Position numbers and translations under genes: made by a program | Source of the DNA: an uncultured Muribaculaceae bacterium | Lineage (GTDB): Bacteria > Bacillota_I > Bacilli_A > RF39 > UBA660 | Length of the DNA stretch: 64,000 nt | Assembly (NCBI GenBank): GCA_964493665.1 | Contig: CAZBOZ010000003.1 | Coordinates: 1,646 to 65,645 of the forward strand | Direction of reading: 5' to 3' | Part shown: positions 3,090 to 22,304 of the stretch, piece after piece | Numbering within the stretch: the stretch's first letter is position 1 | Layout of the letters: each line of letters starts with the position of its first letter | Notes under the pieces: model-generated | What the model was told of the DNA's origin: nothing | Seen by the model: only the letters and a program-made list of their open reading frames with translations | Databases searched by the model: none

Positions 3090-3509
3090 CTACAAGGCAT
3101 CAACATCTTCATCTTCTGGATCAATTATAACTAAATCTTTATATTCATCTTCTAAATCATCTTCATCTTCATTATCATCAAATGAGATATCTTCGTCTTC
3201 ATCATCTTCGTCACCATCCGGAAGTGGATCATCATCTTCATCATCTATTTCAATTTTTTTACTATGATTTATCCTTAAATCCCAATATCCGTTAGGAAGC
3301 ATTACAAATCTTTTATCAGTAGATAAAAGCTCAAAGAAATCAGCTATTTTATCTTCAAAATCTTTTTCAGTCAATCCCAAAAGATCACATATTCTTTTAA
3401 ATAGAGTTTGGATTTTCATCTTTTTTCCATATGATTTTAATATTGAAAAAGCTATATCATCATAAGCTAGTCTTTCTAATTCTTCTTTAGTTAATGTTTT
3501 TATATTCAT
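3090..3509 (-). CDS. rpoE: DNA-directed RNA polymerase delta subunit
   Basis: The N-terminal HARE-HTH-like region (LAYDDIAFSILKSYGKKMKIQTLFKRICDLLGLTEKDF...YWDLR) is followed by a long D/E-rich tail. This is the Firmicute RpoE architecture. Confidence 0.8.
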   Translation of the reverse strand: MNIKTLTKEELERLAYDDIAFSILKSYGKKMKIQTLFKRICDLLGLTEKDFEDKIADFFELLSTDKRFVMLPNGYWDLRINHSKKIEIDDEDDDPLPDGDEDDEDEDISFDDNEDEDDLEDEYKDLVIIDPEDEDVDAL

Positions 3510-5231: not shown

Positions 5232-5258
5232 TAAAAAACTGAATATTTTTTATTCAGT
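5232..5258 (-). terminator. intrinsic terminator after the noc-like gene (stem overlaps the stop codon)
   Basis: Minus strand reads ACTGAATA-AAAAA-TATTCAGT followed by TTTTT. The stop codon at 5250-5252 lies inside the hairpin. Confidence 0.5.
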
Positions 5259-6530
5259 CTTCTTATCTATTTTTATTATTATTTGATATAAATTTTCCAA
5301 GTCTATCTCTTCAGTATCAACTAATAAGCCTTTTTCTTCAATAATCTTTACTGTATCTCTTAGCATATTAATAGCACTTTTTAATGAAAACTCCTCCATT
5401 TTTTCTTCTTGAGGTTTTGGTGGAATATACGATGGATCTAAAGTTTCTATTTTAGAAACCGGATCAATCACATTGTCCATGCTTAATGGTACCGATGGAA
5501 GATCAAGAATTTCTACTTCTTTTTCCTCTTTAGGCTCTACTACTGGTATAGAACTTGGTCCAGCTATTGGCTTATCAAGAATATTCATATTAGCTTCTTC
5601 ATCCTCTAAAAAGTTAAAAAACTTGTTAGGGGTTGGTGGGGTCGAAGGGTTTGGCATGCCACTTGCAGGAGCACTTGGAATGTCTGGTATGGCATTTAAG
5701 TTTGGCTCTTCAACAACTGCCTCTGAGACATCTGGTATTAATGGTTCCTCTTTTACTATTGGTTGTTCTGGAATAATAGGATTATTTGGCATTTGTCCTT
5801 CCGTTCTAAGCATTTGTTCTATTCCTAAAGTTTCTTTTTTAGGAGACAAATCTAATGCCGAATTTTTAATTTGATCAACACTAGGAGTTATTTCGACCAA
5901 AGGGGTATTATCCATTTTTTGGTCGTCTGATATTAAACTTTTTATTTCATCATCAAGTTGCCTAACAGTCCATCTTCCCTCTATTACTTTTCTTAATAAT
6001 TCTTTCTGTTTAGCAAAATCCTGGACTTTTAACATACTTCTAGCATGTCTTTCAGATATTTGTTCTTCTAACAAAGCTTTTTGAACTTCTTCGTCTAAAT
6101 TAAGTAGGCGTAGTCTGTTAGCAATAGTCGGCTGAGAAACCCCTATTCGCTTAGCTAGTTCTTCTTGGGTAACATAACCTCTATCCAGTAAAATCTTATA
6201 AGATTTTGCTTCTTCAATCGGAGTCAAAGACTTTCTTTGAACATTTTCAACTAAAGCAACTTCAGCACTACTGTTATCATCTAAACTAGTAATTATTGCT
6301 GGCACTTTTTGTAAACCTGCCATAATAGCAGCTTTATATCTTCTTTCGCCAGCTATTATTTCATACTTATTTCCGACTCTTCTTAAAACAAGCGGTTGTA
6401 TTATGCCGTGTTCTTTTATAGATGCAGCTAGTTCTTCCATAGCTTGCTCGTCAAATGTTAAACGTGGTTGAAACCTATTAGGAATTATTTCCTCGATTCC
6501 AATCTCCATTAATTGTGGCTCAAAATTCAT
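5250..6530 (-). CDS. noc: ParB/Spo0J/Noc-family DNA-binding protein, Noc-like (nucleoid occlusion), with a long Pro-rich internal linker
   Basis: Has the ParB box IIPNRFQPR, the GERRYKAA arginine patch and the HTH QEELAKRIGVSQPTIANRLRLLNL...ISERHARSML. It sits immediately downstream of rsmG, the noc position in B. subtilis. The PNRFQPR, Q-P-T-I-A-N, ERHAR and C-terminal ...LYQIIIKIDKK features resemble B. subtilis Noc rather than Spo0J, as I recall those sequences. Confidence 0.6.
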   Translation of the reverse strand: MNFEPQLMEIGIEEIIPNRFQPRLTFDEQAMEELAASIKEHGIIQPLVLRRVGNKYEIIAGERRYKAAIMAGLQKVPAIITSLDDNSSAEVALVENVQRKSLTPIEEAKSYKILLDRGYVTQEELAKRIGVSQPTIANRLRLLNLDEEVQKALLEEQISERHARSMLKVQDFAKQKELLRKVIEGRWTVRQLDDEIKSLISDDQKMDNTPLVEITPSVDQIKNSALDLSPKKETLGIEQMLRTEGQMPNNPIIPEQPIVKEEPLIPDVSEAVVEEPNLNAIPDIPSAPASGMPNPSTPPTPNKFFNFLEDEEANMNILDKPIAGPSSIPVVEPKEEKEVEILDLPSVPLSMDNVIDPVSKIETLDPSYIPPKPQEEKMEEFSLKSAINMLRDTVKIIEEKGLLVDTEEIDLENLYQIIIKIDKKTE

Positions 6531-6588: not shown

Positions 6589-7290
6589 TCAATTACTTTT
6601 TAATATTTCATTGTATTTTCTTGGATATCCTTTCGGTGTTTTAGCTCTTTTTTCAATAATTATTAAAGAACGATCATGATCTAAAATTGGAAGTTTATAC
6701 TTTATAACATCAATTGCTTTACCATTTAATAAATTGATTGTTTTCTCACTATTTTGAAGTTCTTCCCCTACTTTACCTTTCATCGCAATAAATAGCCCTT
6801 TTTCTTTTACTAATGGTAAAGATAATTCAGTTAGTATTCTTAAATCCGCTACCGCTCTTGATATAACTAATTCGAATCGATCAACGTTTTTTATAGCAAA
6901 GTCCTCGGCCCTTTCGTTTATGATTTCTACATTAGAAAGGTTCAATTCTTTTGTTATTACTTTTAAAAATTCACATTTTTTAGAATTAGATTCTATTAAA
7001 TATAAATGAAGATCAGGATTAAATATTTTTAACACTAATCCAGGAAACCCTGCCCCTGTACCAATATCTACCAATTCTCGATAATCACTTATATTAAAAT
7101 AATTGCACGGCAGAAGAGAATCACAAAAATGTTTCAAATATATTTCTTTGGTTCCTTCTATGGAAGTTAAATTAAACTTTTTGTTGTATTCTTGTAATAA
7201 AACAACATATTTTTTTAAATCTTCTAGCATTTTTTCAGTACAAGGTATATTGCTAGCTTCTAAAAATTTAATAAATTCTTTTTCAGTCAT
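6589..7290 (-). CDS. rsmG: 16S rRNA (guanine527-N7)-methyltransferase
   Basis: SAM motif DIGTGAGFPGL, 233 aa. Sits in the conserved mnmE-mnmG-rsmG order. Confidence 0.9.
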   Translation of the reverse strand: MTEKEFIKFLEASNIPCTEKMLEDLKKYVVLLQEYNKKFNLTSIEGTKEIYLKHFCDSLLPCNYFNISDYRELVDIGTGAGFPGLVLKIFNPDLHLYLIESNSKKCEFLKVITKELNLSNVEIINERAEDFAIKNVDRFELVISRAVADLRILTELSLPLVKEKGLFIAMKGKVGEELQNSEKTINLLNGKAIDVIKYKLPILDHDRSLIIIEKRAKTPKGYPRKYNEILKSN

Positions 7291-10541: not shown

Positions 10542-10570
10542 ATTATAACACGAAATTATTTCCCGGGAAA
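10542..10570 (-). promoter_or_regulatory. candidate extended -10 promoter of the mnmE-mnmG-rsmG-noc gene string
   Basis: Minus strand reads TGTTATAAT (TGnTATAAT) with the -10 hexamer at 10542-10547. The -35 position (10565-10570, TTTCCC) is poor and falls inside the NBS palindrome. Confidence 0.4.
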
Positions 10571-10571
10571 T
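10558..10571. promoter_or_regulatory. Noc-binding-site-type palindrome ATTTCCCGGGAAAT (within the 22-nt palindrome 10554-10575)
   Basis: Exact match to the published B. subtilis NBS consensus ATTTCCCGGGAAAT. The flanks extend the palindrome to AATTATTTCCCGGGAAATAATT. Confidence 0.6.
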
Positions 10572-10589
10572 AATTATTTAAAAAGAAGA

Positions 10590-12508: not shown

Positions 12509-12806
12509 TGTTTATAACAATGTTAATAACTTTTAAATACTCTTTCATTATATATATAGCCTATTTATAAGTCAAGTTATGAACAGGATGTGGATAACTT
12601 ATAATTTATTTGTTAACAATGTTAATATAACTTTTGTTAATATTGTTGATAACTTTATTTTTTTGCGCTATTATAGTAACTAAATTTAAATTTTATTGTG
12701 AATAACCTGTTGATAATTATTTTTCTGTTTAATTGCTCTTCACTTTTAAATTTTATTAAGTTACAATTAAAACAAGTAGAAGACTGTGAGGTGATATTGT
12801 GGATAA
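12509..12806. promoter_or_regulatory. oriC left part / dnaA upstream DnaA-box cluster
   Basis: Two perfect TGTGGATAA boxes at 12589-12597 and 12798-12806; the second contains the dnaA GTG start. One-mismatch boxes at 12644-12652 (TGTTGATAA), 12697-12705 (TGTGAATAA) and 12708-12716 (TGTTGATAA). Two-mismatch boxes at 12509-12517 and 12521-12529. All are in the same orientation. Confidence 0.8.
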
Positions 12807-14157
12807 AAGCTCTTTATGGAAGCAAATATTAGATGATATTAGCAAAGATTTATCACCAATGTCATTTAACACATGGTTTAAAGACACTGTCTTAATTAGT
12901 TTAGAAAATGATAAAGCCAAGATAAAAGTACCAATGCAAATACATAAAAAATTGCTTGGTGAAAACTACTATGAATTGATTGAAAATCTCTTTGTTAGTA
13001 AAACAAGTCATAATTATGAATTAGAGTTTTTAAGTCAAGATGAATTTGAAAATAAAGAAGAAATTTTAGAAATAAAAGAAGAATTAAAAGAAAATGCAAG
13101 CCCTAAAATATACAACTCTAATTTGATTACTAAATATACTTTTGATAATTTTATAATAGGGGAATCAAATAAATTTGCCCATACTGCCGCTTTAGCAGTT
13201 GCCCAAAACCCTGGCAAAGTTTATAACCCACTTTTTATTCATGGTAAAAGCGGACTGGGTAAAACCCATTTAATGCACGCTATCGGTAATTATGTAGTTA
13301 ACAACCTTAAAAAAACAGCTTTATACATAACAAGTGAAGATTTTATAAGTGATTTTACTAGTTTAAGTAATCCTAATGGCTCAAATAACTTTGATTATGC
13401 CGAAAGATTCAAAGAAAAATACCGTAATGTAGACGTTCTATTAATTGATGATATTCAGTTTTTAGCAGGAGCAGAGAAGACTCAAAGAGAATTTTTCCAT
13501 ACTTTCAACGCTTTGCACTCAGCTAATAAACAAATAGTTATTAGTTCTGACCGTTCTCCTGATGAATTAAAGGTATTAGAAGAAAGACTTAGAACAAGAT
13601 TTGCTTGGGGACTTACAGTTGATATATATCCGCCCGATATAGAACTTAAAAATAGGATTCTCAAAAACAAAATAATAGGCCATCAAGTAGCTAAAATGAT
13701 TGATGAAGATGTGATTGATTTTATGGCTAATTCTTGTGAAAATGACGTTAGACACCTAGAAGGAGCAATAACTAGATTATATGCTTATGCAGCTATTAAT
13801 AATACTCCTAAAATAGATTTAGAATTTGCTCAAGAGGCTTTAAAAGATTTTGTTAATAAATCCATTTATTTTAAAAATGATATTTCTAGGATTCAAAGCG
13901 CTGTTTGTGATTTCTATAAACTTAGTTTAGAAGATTTAAAAAGCAAAAAACGCAGTAATAATATTGCTTATCCTAGACAAATTGGGATGTATTTAAGTAG
14001 AATAATGACTGATGAATCATTACAAAAAATAGGGTTAGAATTTGGGAATAGAGATCATTCTACAGTTCTTCATGCTTATGAAAAAATTATTAAAGATTTA
14101 ATTAACAACAATGAATTGAACAAAATTATTAGTGATATAAAAGATAAAGTTGTTTAG
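12799..14157 (+). CDS. dnaA: chromosomal replication initiator protein DnaA
   Basis: GTG start after a GAGGTGA RBS. Has Walker A (GKSGLGKTHL), Walker B (LLIDDIQFL) and the C-terminal DnaA-box-binding domain (RDHSTVLHAYEKI). Confidence 0.97.
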   Translation: MDKSSLWKQILDDISKDLSPMSFNTWFKDTVLISLENDKAKIKVPMQIHKKLLGENYYELIENLFVSKTSHNYELEFLSQDEFENKEEILEIKEELKENASPKIYNSNLITKYTFDNFIIGESNKFAHTAALAVAQNPGKVYNPLFIHGKSGLGKTHLMHAIGNYVVNNLKKTALYITSEDFISDFTSLSNPNGSNNFDYAERFKEKYRNVDVLLIDDIQFLAGAEKTQREFFHTFNALHSANKQIVISSDRSPDELKVLEERLRTRFAWGLTVDIYPPDIELKNRILKNKIIGHQVAKMIDEDVIDFMANSCENDVRHLEGAITRLYAYAAINNTPKIDLEFAQEALKDFVNKSIYFKNDISRIQSAVCDFYKLSLEDLKSKKRSNNIAYPRQIGMYLSRIMTDESLQKIGLEFGNRDHSTVLHAYEKIIKDLINNNELNKIISDIKDKVV

Positions 14158-15437: not shown

Positions 15438-15519
15438 ATTTTAAAACTAAAATTCGCCATAAATCGTCTTTTAAAAATGCTTTAATAAAAGGCAAATTTA
15501 AAAGAAGGAGGTGGATTTG

Positions 15520-15969
15520 ATGAACGAATATGAAGTTAATTCTAAAACACTGGCGATTGTTTCATTGTCTTCTCAAAAATCAAAAATATACGAAGACTCT
15601 AATATATTTGTTGTTAATAAGTCAGCTACTAAGATAATGGAAGATAGCTGTCAATTTTTTGGAAGTTCTTTGTTGGGGCGTCAGAAGGGAACAAATAATT
15701 TAATAGGAGTTACCCATAAGGCTCCAATAATAGTAGAAGAAAGTAGAGAAATAATCTTTTTTCCGACTTTATCCCCAAGAAAAAACTCTTGTTCCTGGAT
15801 AGCTTTAAAGAATATTGCTAGTTATTATGACAAAGATCAGAATGTTTATATTAAATTTAAAAATAATGTTCAACTAGAATTAGACATTTCTTATGGAGTG
15901 GTAGACAATCAAGTTTTAAGAGCTACGAGATTAGAATCAGTATTAAGAAACAGAAAAATGGAAAAATAG
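15520..15969 (+). CDS. comK: ComK-family competence transcription factor homolog
   Basis: Start moved to the ATG 9 nt after the GGAGG RBS. Motifs shared with B. subtilis ComK as I recall it: YEVN..T.A, SC.FFGSS..GR..GT, HK.PI.V, FPT.S......W, ISY....NQV.R. Short at 149 aa. Confidence 0.7.
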   Translation: MNEYEVNSKTLAIVSLSSQKSKIYEDSNIFVVNKSATKIMEDSCQFFGSSLLGRQKGTNNLIGVTHKAPIIVEESREIIFFPTLSPRKNSCSWIALKNIASYYDKDQNVYIKFKNNVQLELDISYGVVDNQVLRATRLESVLRNRKMEK

Positions 15970-19085: not shown

Positions 19086-21503
19086 ATGGATAAACTACAA
19101 AATAGTAATATAGTTAAAGAAATGCAAAAATCATTTTTGGAATATTCTATGAGCGTTATTATATCAAGAGCTATTCCTGATTTAAGAGATGGTTTAAAAC
19201 CTGTTCATAGACGTATACTATATACTATGCTAGAATCTGGGTTTACTCCCGATAAAGGCTATGTAAAATGCGCTAAAACAGTTGGAGCCGTAATTGGTAA
19301 TTACCATCCTCATGGCGATACAGCAGTATATGATGCTATGGTTAGAATGGCTCAAGACTTTAGTTACCGTCATCCATTGATAGATGGTCACGGGAACTTT
19401 GGAGCTATAGATGGCAGTACTGCAGCTGCTTATCGTTATACAGAATCAAGAATATCTAAAATAGCTATGGAAATACTTAGAGATATAAACAAGAACACTG
19501 TTGATTTTGATGATAATTTCGACGCTACAAGAAAAGAACCTGCTGTTTTACCAAGTAGATTTCCTAATATTATAGTTAATGGGACTATGGGAATAGCTGT
19601 TGGTATGGCGACAAATATTCCTCCTCATAATTTGGGCGAAGTAATAGATGGCTGTGTGGCCTATATTGATAATCCGGAAATTGATACCCTGGGGTTAATG
19701 CAACACATAAAAGGCCCAGATTTTCCTACGGGAGGATCGATATTAGGTAATAGTGGTATTAAGAAAGCTTATGATACTGGCAAAGGGTCAATAACTATTA
19801 GAGGAAAAGTAAATACTATAGAAAAAAATGGCAGGTATGAGCTTGTCATAACTGAAGTACCTTATCAAGTAAATACAACCGCTCTGATAACTAAAATCGC
19901 TGAGTTAGTTAGAGATAAAATTATTGATGGCATCGCTGATCTTCGTGAAGAAACATCTTTTAAAGATGGCATGAAAATTGTGATAGAGCTAAAAAAAGAT
20001 GCTAATCCAGGAGTGGTATTAAATAATCTATATAAACATACCCAATTGCAATCTTCTTTTGGTATAAATATGTTGATGTTATACCAAGGGAAACCAGTTA
20101 CTTTGGGCTTAAAAGAGATTATTAGAAACTATATAGATTTCCAAAAAGAAGTTATTTATAGAAGAACCGAGTTTGATTTAGATAAAGCTATCAAAAGAGC
20201 CCATATTTTAGAGGGTTTAAAGATCGCTTTAGATCATATTGATGAGGTTATAAAGATAATAAAAGAAGCCAAAACTGATATTGTAGCTAAAGAAAAATTA
20301 ACTAGTAGATTCGGTTTAGATGATGCTCAAACCGAGGCAATATTAGAAATGAAGTTAAGAAAATTAACCGGTCTAGAAAAAGAAAAAGTAATAGAAGAGT
20401 TAGAGGCGTTGCTGAAACTTATTGATGAGTTAAAATCAATACTAGCAAGTGAAGCAAAAGTTCTAACGATAATAAAAGAAGAAATGTTAGAAATAAAGCA
20501 AAAGTATGCCAACGAAAGAAAGACTACCATTGATATGACATCTATTGAATATATTGAAGATGAATCTTTGATCCCTGAAGAAGAAATTATTATAACCTTA
20601 ACAAATAAAGGGTATATAAAAAGATTGGCTGCTGACGCTTATAAAACTCAAAATAGAGGCGGAGTTGGAGTGAAGGGCATAACCACTAACGAAGAGGACT
20701 TTGTAGAGCATCTAGTTAATCTCTCAACTCACGATTACCTATTGTGTTTTACTAATAAAGGCAAAGTATATCGACTAAAAGGATACGAGATTCCAGAATT
20801 TGGCAAGCAAGCCAAAGGTTTACCAATTGTAAATTTGCTGCAAATAGATAAAGACGAGTGCATAAACTCAATTATCAAGTTATCTAAAGATAACGATTAT
20901 AATTATTTGCTATTTGCTACCAAAAAAGGAATAGTAAAAAGAACAAAAATAGCTGATTTTGATAATATAAGAGCTACTGGCAAGATTTGCATTAGCTTAA
21001 AAGAGGCTGATGAACTAATTGCGGTGAGAAAAACAACTGGAACTGATGAAGTTTTGCTTGGATCATCTTTAGGCAGAATGGCTAAGTTTAACGAAAACGA
21101 TGTAAGAGTTATGGGTAGAACTGCCGGTGGAGTAAGGGGAATAAACCTAGGCCTAGCAGAATGTATAGGAGCGGAGGTTGCAAATAGCAAACAAAGCGTT
21201 CTAATAGTTACCCAAAATGGCTACGGGAAGAAAACTCCGGTCAGTGAGTATAGACTTTCTAAAAGAGGCAGCAAAGGAGTAAAAGCTTTAAGCATAACTG
21301 AAAAAAATGGTCCAATATCATCATTTAAAATAGTTAGAGAAGATGCTGATATTATGATTATAACTGATTTTGGAACTGTAATAAGGCTTCCGCTGGAGCA
21401 AATATCTGAACTAGGAAGAGTTACTCAAGGAGTAAGATTAATAAATTTAAAAGAAAATCAAAAAGTTTCCACAATTAGTATAGTTGATAAAACTGACGAA
21501 TAA
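19086..21503 (+). CDS. gyrA: DNA gyrase subunit A
   Basis: QRDR region ([13 protein letters not shown]), active-site AAYRYTE and C-terminal beta-pinwheel repeats. 805 aa. Confidence 0.97.
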
Positions 21504-21505
21504 TT

Positions 21506-21538
21506 AAAACAATGTTTCACGTGAAACATTGTTTTTTT
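21506..21538 (+). terminator. gyrA terminator hairpin formed by the 30-nt perfect palindrome that contains parS-1
   Basis: AAAACAATGTTTCAC|GTGAAACATTGTTTT is followed by further T residues and begins 3 nt after the gyrA stop. Confidence 0.6.
21513..21528. promoter_or_regulatory. parS site 1 (TGTTTCACGTGAAACA)
   Basis: Perfect 16-bp palindromic match to the Firmicute parS consensus TGTTNCACGTGAAACA. Confidence 0.8.
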
Positions 21539-21549
21539 GTTCGCAAATT

Positions 21550-21563
21550 ATTTCCCGGGAAAT
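21550..21563. promoter_or_regulatory. Noc-binding-site-type palindrome ATTTCCCGGGAAAT (within the 24-nt palindrome 21545-21568)
   Basis: Exact NBS consensus. The same extended core AATTATTTCCCGGGAAATAATT occurs at 10554-10575. Confidence 0.6.
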
Positions 21564-21572
21564 AATTTCTAA

Positions 21573-21588
21573 TGTTTCACGTGAAACA
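21573..21588. promoter_or_regulatory. parS site 2 (TGTTTCACGTGAAACA)
   Basis: Perfect 16-bp match to the parS consensus. Confidence 0.8.
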
Positions 21589-21735
21589 TAACAATTAAAA
21601 AACACATAAATATCGCTATTTCACTTTTTAAAAATTAAAGATTAAATGAGCCACAATTAAATAATTGTATTTAACGCAATTGAAAACTAATAAAAATGTT
21701 TTGAGTTTTGTATAGATGACAAATTATTAAAACAA

Positions 21736-21751
21736 TGTTTCACGTGAAACA
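21736..21751. promoter_or_regulatory. parS site 3 (TGTTTCACGTGAAACA)
   Basis: Perfect 16-bp match. The 31-nt block ATTAAAACAATGTTTCACGTGAAACATTGTT (21726-21756) is identical to 21503-21533. Confidence 0.8.
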
Positions 21752-21754
21752 TTG

Positions 21755-21783
21755 TTGCTAAAAAAACATATAAATGATATTAT
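21755..21783 (+). promoter_or_regulatory. candidate sigma-A promoter of the SRP RNA (TTGCTA-17-TATTAT)
   Basis: -35 at 21755-21760 and -10 at 21778-21783. The RNA 5-prime helix begins about 7 nt downstream. The -35 abuts parS-3. Confidence 0.5.
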
Positions 21784-21789
21784 CTTTTT

Positions 21790-21860
21790 GTGCAACAAGC
21801 CCAGTAGCAATTGGTCAGAATCGGAAGATGGCAGCCAAACTATTTAAAGCTTGTGTGCAC
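21790..21860 (+). ncRNA. ffs: small (4.5S-type) signal recognition particle RNA
   Basis: GGUCAG-AAUC-GGAA-GAUG-GCAGCC matches the universally conserved SRP helix 8 (E. coli GGUCAG-GUCC-GGAA-GGAA-GCAGCC), including the GGAA tetraloop. The terminal helix GUGCA.CAAGC / GCUUG..UGCAC closes the molecule and a T7 run follows. The position near tadA and dnaX resembles the B. subtilis scr locus. Ends are approximate. Confidence 0.85.
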
Positions 21861-21878
21861 TTTTTTTAAGGAGAAACA

Positions 21879-22304
21879 ATGAATAATAGATTTTTTAATG
21901 ATGCTTTGAATGAATCTTTTAAAGCCGAAAAAAAACAAAGTGTTCCAGTAGGAGCAGTGTTAGTAAAAAATAATAAAATAATTTCTAGGGCTCATAATAT
22001 AAACTATAAGTCAAATATGGTAATTGATCATGCCGAAATAATATGTATTAAAAAGGCCGTTAAAAAAAGCAATGATTGGCGATTAGATGATTTTGATATG
22101 TATGTTACATTAGAACCATGTGATATGTGCAAAGAGGTGATAAAGGCTTCAAGAATTAAAAATGTTTTTTATCTTTTACCAAAAAATAGTAAAGTTTGCA
22201 AACAGCAAACAAAATTTATTAAAGCTATAAACGTTACTGATGTTGATACTAAGCTGGGAGAAAATAAACTAAAAAGTTTTTTTAAAAAGCTAAGACAGAA
22301 ATAA
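21879..22304 (+). CDS. tadA: tRNA-specific adenosine deaminase
   Basis: CDA zinc motifs HAE (DHAEIICI) and PCxxC (EPCDMC). 141 aa. Confidence 0.85.
   Translation: MNNRFFNDALNESFKAEKKQSVPVGAVLVKNNKIISRAHNINYKSNMVIDHAEIICIKKAVKKSNDWRLDDFDMYVTLEPCDMCKEVIKASRIKNVFYLLPKNSKVCKQQTKFIKAINVTDVDTKLGENKLKSFFKKLRQK

Follow-up and report, generated by a model that had tools for sequence, protein, structure and literature searches.

The stretch of DNA analysed here, a 64-kb window with a G+C content of about 30%, is the origin region of an organism that is present in bioreactor, sludge, and wastewater metagenomes. The sign of the GC skew flips at about 12-13 kb, and this change, together with dnaA (12799-14157, plus strand), places oriC about 9 kb from a cluster of parS sites and a Noc-binding site (NBS), the subject of this analysis. 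The genes of the minus strand follow the order prmC, prfA, orf139, argS, noc-like, rsmG, mnmG, mnmE, jag, yidC, and rnpA, and those of the plus strand the order dnaA, dnaN, orf152, recF, gyrB, gyrA, a spacer that holds the sites and an SRP RNA gene, tadA, dnaX, ybaB, and recR. Two small genes of the region deserve a remark. The product of orf139 (3090-3509, between argS and prfA) has 139 aa and no Pfam match, and unannotated genes of similar size (145-146 aa) occupy this position in the distant relatives L120 and L122. The other, orf152 (15511-15969, between dnaN and recF), has a counterpart gene in relatives with a ComK domain (PF06338); in Bacillus, the dnaN-recF position is taken by the small S4-like gene yaaA.

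The spacer that carries the sites is bordered on the left by gyrA (19086-21503, plus strand) and on the right by a tadA-like deaminase gene (21879-22304, plus strand), and also contains the SRP RNA gene (21786-21866, plus strand; RF00169, 43.1 bits). Three exact copies of the 16-bp parS sequence TGTTTCACGTGAAACA lie in it: parS-1 at 21513-21528, parS-2 at 21573-21588, and parS-3 at 21736-21751, the last with the same 26-nt extended palindrome as parS-1. Degenerate parS sites, searched in the window at up to three mismatches to TGTTTCACGTGAAACA, were not found, and none of 100 shuffles of the window reached three parS matches. Sandwiched between parS-1 and parS-2 is AAATTATTTCCCGGGAAATAATTT (21545-21568), a perfect palindrome of 24 nt. 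Inside it lie an exact 16-bp NBS, TATTTCCCGGGAAATA (21549-21564), and the exact 14-bp NBS core, ATTTCCCGGGAAAT (21550-21563), which is the consensus published for B. subtilis (Jalal 2020, PMC7383237; Jalal 2021, PMC8429893). An earlier sequence-only reading of this DNA had described the palindrome, the identity of its core with the published site, and a parS-NBS-parS arrangement within 76 bp, and all three are exact in the sequence, the 76 bp running from the start of parS-1 to the end of parS-2. Its distances of 22 and 10 nt between the palindrome and the flanking parS sites need correcting: the gaps to the parS 16-mers are 16 and 4 nt when measured from the 24-mer, and 21 and 9 nt when measured from the 14-bp core. 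The third parS comes 163 bp further along.

The same reading had noted that 22 nt of the palindrome recur at 10554-10575, and this second NBS is indeed a perfect palindrome (16-bp site at 10557-10572, core at 10558-10571, all exact), with 23 nt shared between 10553-10575 and 21545-21567. It sits in the 73-bp spacer between jag and mnmE, with no parS nearby; two distant relatives lack an NBS at that position, and no claim is made for it. The 64 kb contain no third site of this kind: the core ATTTCCCGGGAAAT has exactly two matches even when up to two mismatches are allowed (0.28 expected), and the 16-mer TATTTCCCGGGAAATA has the same two matches alone at up to three mismatches. The window's own case is a modest one, namely one NBS among three parS sites in a spacer.

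Several further features of the spacer may be recorded beside the sites themselves. The extended palindrome of parS-1, AAAACAATGTTTCACGTGAAACATTGTTTT (21506-21535), is followed by a T-run and scores as an intrinsic terminator directly 3' of the gyrA stop codon, so that a centromere site may double as the terminator of gyrA. The RNA of 21495-21600 folds into three hairpins (z = -7.1). At the other end of the spacer, a promoter-like site (21755-21783; TTGCTA, 17 nt, TATTAT, with a TG) starts 4 nt past parS-3 and ends 3 nt ahead of the SRP RNA gene; ParB, if bound to parS-3, would cover its -35 region. In public sequencing runs, the strain is essentially identical and covered at low depth, and the sites show no informative substitutions. 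One 45-nt contig of run X4 (21544-21589) spans the NBS and parS-2, has a 1-nt deletion at 21569, and reaches a depth of 49, about ten times that of neighbouring pieces; the depth and the deletion suggest a more abundant relative with the same NBS-parS module in that bioreactor.

The candidate binder of the NBS is the product of the single ParB-family gene of the window, a noc-like CTP-clamp gene (5250-6530, minus strand; 426 aa; Pfam ParB_N, PF02195, and HTH_ParB, PF17762) about 15 kb from the cluster. As with noc in B. subtilis, this ParB paralogue is encoded near oriC and directly downstream of rsmG (gidB; 6589-7290, minus strand). The same order, rsmG then noc-like, is found in relatives; unlike in B. 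subtilis, soj and spo0J do not follow. The best relatives in the PDB are Noc structures (7ng0 and 7nfu at 1e-56; 7ol9 at 5e-49), with B. subtilis ParB (6sdk, 1e-47) behind them. Like B. subtilis Noc, the protein has a ParB_N domain, an HTH domain, and a C-terminal dimerisation domain, and both CTP-clamp motifs, GERR and ENxQR, are present. Judged by its sequence, it is closer to Noc than to ParB, which agrees with what the sequence-only reading had proposed for this gene. It is not, however, a canonical Noc: the N-terminal amphipathic membrane helix of B. subtilis Noc (aa 1-14; K2, F5, R7, F8, F9) is missing, and its score of 280 bits against the NCBIfam Noc model TIGR04285 falls under the cut-off of 315 bits (parB_part gives 174 bits). 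In Bacillus, Noc function requires this helix (Adams 2015, PMC4331003). The window protein starts MNFEPQLMEIGIEEIIPNRFQPR and is about 23 residues shorter than B. subtilis Noc, and an upstream extension of its reading frame is impossible. Among the best 120 family members, the box PNRFQPR lies 14-16 residues from the N terminus in 108.

The residues that read the DNA point more directly to the NBS. In the numbering of the Caulobacter protein, the specificity set of ParB is R173, T179, A184, and G201, and that of Noc is Q173, K179, K184, and R201; Q173 contacts adenine 1 of the NBS and R201 cytosine 6, a single K or R at 179 or 184 suffices for reading the NBS, and R173 is invariable among parS binders (Jalal 2020, PMC7383237). 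The window protein has Q-R-N-R at positions 173/179/184/201 (SQPTIANRLRLLNL...SERHAR). Measured against the Noc set, Q173 and R201 are thus exact and the basic R179 is permissive, and the residue at 184 is N, not K. The best 120 homologues carry QKNR (114), QRNR (5), or QKTR (1), that is, Q-K/R-N-R in 119/120. With the rules of Jalal 2020, these residues lead us to predict that the family is NBS-specific and does not bind parS.

A further difference from B. subtilis Noc lies in the middle of the protein. AlphaFold2 (AF2) predicts a folded part at residues 7-205, disorder at 205-355, and a folded C-terminal domain at 380-421, with pLDDT below 50 over most of 246-349, which amounts to a disordered linker of about 150 residues. 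Within this linker, at residues of about 301-315, lies an acidic motif, [KR]FFNFLEDExxNM, that is kept in 115/120 of the members compared, some of which have a second, weaker copy. By its sequence, FFNFLEDE could be a short linear motif for partner binding, and it is the obvious candidate for a partner-binding element of the Noc-like protein. We also considered the motif as a relocated membrane helix and dropped the idea; with a net charge of about -3 and a low-confidence prediction of disorder, it does not resemble a typical cationic membrane helix, and no membrane-targeting role is claimed for it.

The arrangement seen in the window recurs in other genomes. We scanned one genome per species, 185,579 species in all, for a parS followed by an NBS core within 0-30 nt, a pattern with a chance expectation of about 5e-4 (a rough estimate from the size of the collection and the length of the pattern). 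At least 119 stretches with a parS no more than 30 bp from an NBS were found among the species-representative genomes, and all of the matches listed come from uncultured, Bacilli-type metagenome-assembled genomes (MAGs). Because the NCBI lineage of one named MAG genus proved inconsistent, the clade is named here from the MAG record labels alone, which read Bacilli, Tenericutes/Mycoplasmatota, Erysipelotrichaceae, Clostridium sp. CAG:710, CAG:417, and CAG:1000, with a few implausible ones. A Bacilli-type gyrB-gyrA-tadA-dnaX locus also sits in contigs whose bins were assigned to Muribaculaceae, Bacteroides helcogenes, or Clostridium (L004, L005, L011, L023, L029, L039, and others), and the labels on such MAG records cannot be relied upon. 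All of the matches listed (119/119) are syntenic with the window, the mixed cluster lying between gyrA and tadA, and their GyrA proteins are 62-73% identical to that of the window. Among these same matches, an 8-kb locus has a median of 4 parS and 2 NBS, the parS-NBS-parS sandwich of the window is found in at least 31 loci, and three or more adjacent parS/NBS pairs are found in at least 16. The distance from parS to NBS in the relatives, again among the matches listed, ranges between 16 and about 50 bp, without a constant phase. This span rules out a fixed helical phasing of the two sites, and the variable spacing argues against a rigid joint complex. The NBS logo of the clade extends over about 24 bp, aAAAtT-ATTTCCCGGGAAAT-AaTTTt, which is exactly the palindrome of the window.

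Isolated NBS also occur in the relatives, every few kb near the origin. An exact 16-bp NBS lies inside dnaX, at about DnaX residues 342-394, in at least 28 relatives (L002, L003, L005, and L080 among them) and is read there in two frames (ISREI and YFPGN), an indication that selection acts on the DNA site, not on the peptide; dnaX of the window has no NBS. As for the organisms themselves, the neighbourhood of the noc-like gene in L120 and L122 includes SpoIIR-domain and class A PBP genes. With these genes in view, these reduced-genome uncultured Bacilli appear to be walled and may have kept parts of the sporulation programme.

In some relatives, the two sites have been amplified into strictly alternating arrays of up to 9-11 parS+NBS units. 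Tandem Repeats Finder reports repeats of 75 bp in 8.8 copies (L064), 64 bp in 7.8 copies (L010), and 172/334 bp (L047), and each repeat unit in these three loci holds one parS and one NBS. Across seven arrays, the deviation from the unit consensus is 1.9% in parS, 3.8% in NBS, and 11.4% in the spacers (Fisher p against spacers of 2e-18 and 6e-11 for the two sites), where the anchoring of the copies on parS favours the parS figure and leaves the NBS figure unaffected. This sequence comparison indicates that parS and NBS within the arrays are both under purifying selection.

A pattern scan yields positives only, and the frequency of the arrangement is given by an unbiased sample of 80 metagenome loci chosen by GyrA similarity alone. 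Where GyrA is at least 61% identical and enough downstream DNA is available, a parS follows gyrA in 41/46 loci, an exact NBS lies within 2.5 kb in 21/46, and parS and NBS are no more than 60 bp apart in 14/46; the outgroup (GyrA 52-55%) has parS in 3/22 and NBS in 0/22. After removal of identical spacers, parS is found in the gyrA-tadA spacer of 30/36 loci and NBS in that of 11/36. The density of NBS is 0.62 per kb in the spacer versus 0.037 per kb outside, a 17-fold difference. Of the 16 NBS in the spacers, 13 are no more than 50 bp away from a parS, where random placement predicts 5.7, and none of 2000 simulations of such placement reaches 13, a result whose P value, like the others of this sample, is optimistic because near-duplicate lineages are retained. 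In the two relatives nearest to the window (GyrA 73-74%), the spacer carries parS and lacks an NBS. The parS cluster is nearly universal in the clade, and the embedded NBS is frequent, non-random, and, being missing from the nearest relatives and present in a minority of loci only, dispensable. The sequence-only reading had raised the conservation of the arrangement in relatives as a check on its proposal. The interleaving itself stands up, since at least 119 related genomes show it at this very locus; a conservation of NBS on a par with that of parS does not (11/36 versus 30/36 of the unbiased loci, with parS and no NBS in the two nearest relatives).

Our preferred reading of these observations is that the palindrome is a genuine NBS within the origin parS cluster and that the two kinds of site would form a composite ParB/Noc loading zone at the origin, to which, working from sequence, we give a probability of roughly 0.58. 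A dimer of the Noc-like protein would nucleate on the NBS, and a canonical ParB, presumably encoded outside the window, would nucleate on parS. Both would then close into CTP clamps and slide over the same flanking origin DNA, as is known for B. subtilis Noc and for ParB (PMC7053999 for ParB), so that the centromere would come to be coated by both paralogues. The likeliest purpose would be to concentrate a nucleoid-occlusion or anchoring activity on the origin and centromere: division would be blocked over unsegregated origins and released after the origins separate. As a possible secondary effect, the protein on the NBS may form a roadblock and so influence how ParB spreads. An occlusion focused on the origin agrees with findings in B. 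subtilis, where Spo0J and Noc are needed together to keep Z rings off the nucleoid (PMC6852036). With the N-terminal amphipathic helix missing, a membrane-based mechanism of occlusion is not supported.

The two sites may, on the other hand, share the spacer with no functional coupling. An AT-rich, non-coding spacer near oriC that tolerates insertions would then have accumulated NBS, copied along with parS through tandem duplication, and Noc and ParB would act independently. The absence of NBS from the spacer in about two thirds of the unbiased loci, including those of the nearest relatives, is what one would expect here, as are the variable parS-NBS spacing, the origin of the arrays by duplication of whole units, and the isolated NBS, both the one at 10557 in the window and those that relatives have inside dnaX. 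This explanation does less well with the 17-fold higher density of NBS in the spacer than outside, with the placement of 13/16 spacer NBS within 50 bp of a parS where 5.7 would be expected, with the roughly 3-fold better conservation of the array NBS copies than of the spacers, and with the recurrence of the arrangement in at least 119 species. We consider it rather unlikely.

A composite loading zone requires two clamps, and here the sites themselves are informative. The loci listed, at least 119 in number, contain 783 sites that fit the ParB-family palindrome with the halves TNTTNCNC and GNGNAANA, and these fall into 472 pure parS (both halves G1/A6), 298 pure NBS (both halves A1/C6), and 13 others, where 119 parS and 119 NBS of the 783 are present by construction of the search. 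Swapped palindromes (G1/C6 or A1/A6) and sites made of a parS half and an NBS half number 0/783. A ParB-Noc heterodimer on a hybrid site, which we had considered, is ruled out by the lack of half-parS/half-NBS sites among the 783. The sharp separation is what would be expected from two strictly specific homodimers, and the lack of hybrid sites speaks for two distinct binders and against both one tolerant reader and heterodimers.

The second clamp partner is assumed, since searches of the window and of origin-proximal loci in relatives turned up no canonical ParB or ParA. A six-frame motif scan of the 64-kb window found neither a canonical ParB nor a ParA-type Walker A protein; tblastn with the N-terminal and HTH region of ParB and with B. 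subtilis Soj, run on 119 + 84 = 203 origin-proximal loci, found noc-like genes only; and the neighbourhoods of two distant family members have no soj and no spo0J. The Logan contigs at both ends of the window are short and carry ribosomal and housekeeping genes only. These results can also be taken to mean that the clade has no ParB-family protein other than the Noc-like one, which would bind parS as well as NBS, a two-site centromere served by a single clamp. In its favour are the single ParB-family gene and the lack of a ParA-type Walker A protein in a 64-kb origin window, the rsmG-noc-like order with no soj or spo0J in relatives too, the failure to find ParB across the 203 origin-proximal loci, and the dual-specificity variants contained in a library of Caulobacter ParB (Jalal 2020, PMC7383237). 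Those variants, however, mostly have T or S at 201, and parS binders always have R173, whereas the family has Q173 and R201 (PMC7383237); QKAR-type variants fall outside the promiscuous and hybrid classes. A tolerant reader should, moreover, permit G1/C6 or A1/A6 palindromes, of which there are none among the 783, and the search for ParB covered origin-proximal DNA, so that a ParB may be encoded elsewhere. A single protein with two codes therefore seems improbable to us. We hold it equally doubtful that the clade does without any canonical ParB and that the Noc-like protein, alone or with an unrecognised partner, uses alternating parS and NBS as a two-code centromere; if this were true, segregation of the chromosome and control of division would be united at the origin in a single CTP clamp.

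Within a zone loaded by two clamps, the NBS might serve as a roadblock or insulator and not for the delivery of occlusion: it would limit or direct the sliding of ParB, which would, for example, be kept off the SRP RNA and tadA promoters or trapped between sites. It is known both in vitro and in vivo that DNA-bound proteins stop ParB from sliding in one direction (PMC7053999), and the NBS is flanked by parS sites and precedes the promoter-like site of the SRP RNA gene. Yet parS-3 lies beyond the NBS, right at that promoter, and would be left unshielded, and Noc with CTP departs from its own site as a sliding clamp. Alternating arrays of 8-11 units are likewise hard to reconcile with insulators, and we regard such a role, in place of occlusion, as very improbable. 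Hardly credible, finally, is the proposal that the palindrome is no Noc site at all but the operator of an unrelated regulator, a gyrA 3' terminator or RNA hairpin, or a target of restriction-modification: the RNA of the region does fold into three strong hairpins (z = -7.1), parS-1 does score as a terminator, and CCCGGG is a known restriction site, but the NBS hairpin lacks a T-run and does not score as a terminator, the identical 16-mer stands in the jag-mnmE spacer and, in relatives, in two frames inside dnaX, the conservation covers the full 16-24 bp of the NBS and extends beyond CCCGGG, and the site co-occurs with a protein that bears NBS-reading residues.

The composite loading zone that we favour may be compared with several known systems. 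Relative to Noc and its sites in B. subtilis (Wu 2009; PMC4331003; PMC7383237; PMC8429893), the 14/16-bp site TATTTCCCGGGAAATA is identical here. Unlike in B. subtilis, where NBS are scattered, it lies within the parS cluster, the relatives amplify the two sites into alternating arrays, and the clade consensus reaches 24 bp. The protein differs from B. subtilis Noc in the features described above, that is, the lack of the N-terminal amphipathic helix, N at 184, the linker of about 150 residues with its conserved acidic FFNFLEDE, the score under the NCBIfam Noc cut-off, and the lack of an adjacent soj and spo0J. Like the origin parS clusters of ParB/Spo0J (Firmicutes consensus TGTTNCACGTGNAACA), the cluster consists of exact 16-bp palindromes, several within a few hundred bp, near oriC and at one conserved locus (30/36 unbiased loci). 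Unlike the usual clusters of this kind, it lies in a gyrA-SRP RNA-tadA spacer and not in or near parB, has no parAB operon within -21/+42 kb, and is interspersed with the sites of a paralogous clamp.

For Spo0J and Noc in B. subtilis, their joint need provides a functional reason for having both on the same DNA (Hajduk 2019, PMC6852036). Their cooperation is genetic and works via the shape of the nucleoid, and the study describes no loading sites that are shared or interleaved (PMC6852036). In mParSpot, parS and NBS likewise serve to load two paralogous clamps without cross-reaction; unlike that system, which is engineered, uses separate loci, and works in eukaryotic cells, the alternation within 16-50 bp described here is natural (PMC11109969). 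The literature we searched contains no description of a natural interleaving of parS and NBS at 16-50 bp, in line with the statement of the sequence-only reading that the NBS of B. subtilis are not known to be interleaved with parS. Neither did we find in it a one-locus conservation at the origin over more than 100 species with amplification into alternating arrays, or a large Noc-like subfamily that lacks the N-terminal helix and has a long, motif-bearing linker. NBS, parS, and the Noc-like and ParB clamps are all known; what appears to be new is their interleaving, its conservation at one locus with the arrays, and the helix-less, long-linker subfamily.

ParB and Noc, the textbook example of paralogous CTP-dependent DNA clamps, have diverged to recognise sites that differ by two bases per half-site and have so far been treated as spatially separate systems. 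A clade in which the loading sites of both lie 16-50 bp apart at the origin opens questions about these clamps to direct test: whether two sliding clamps share, compete for, or cooperate on one DNA track, whether nucleoid occlusion can be focused on the centromere, and how a Noc without its membrane helix signals. For work on clamp cross-talk in vitro, the clade supplies natural DNA substrates and a large protein family of hundreds of sequences.
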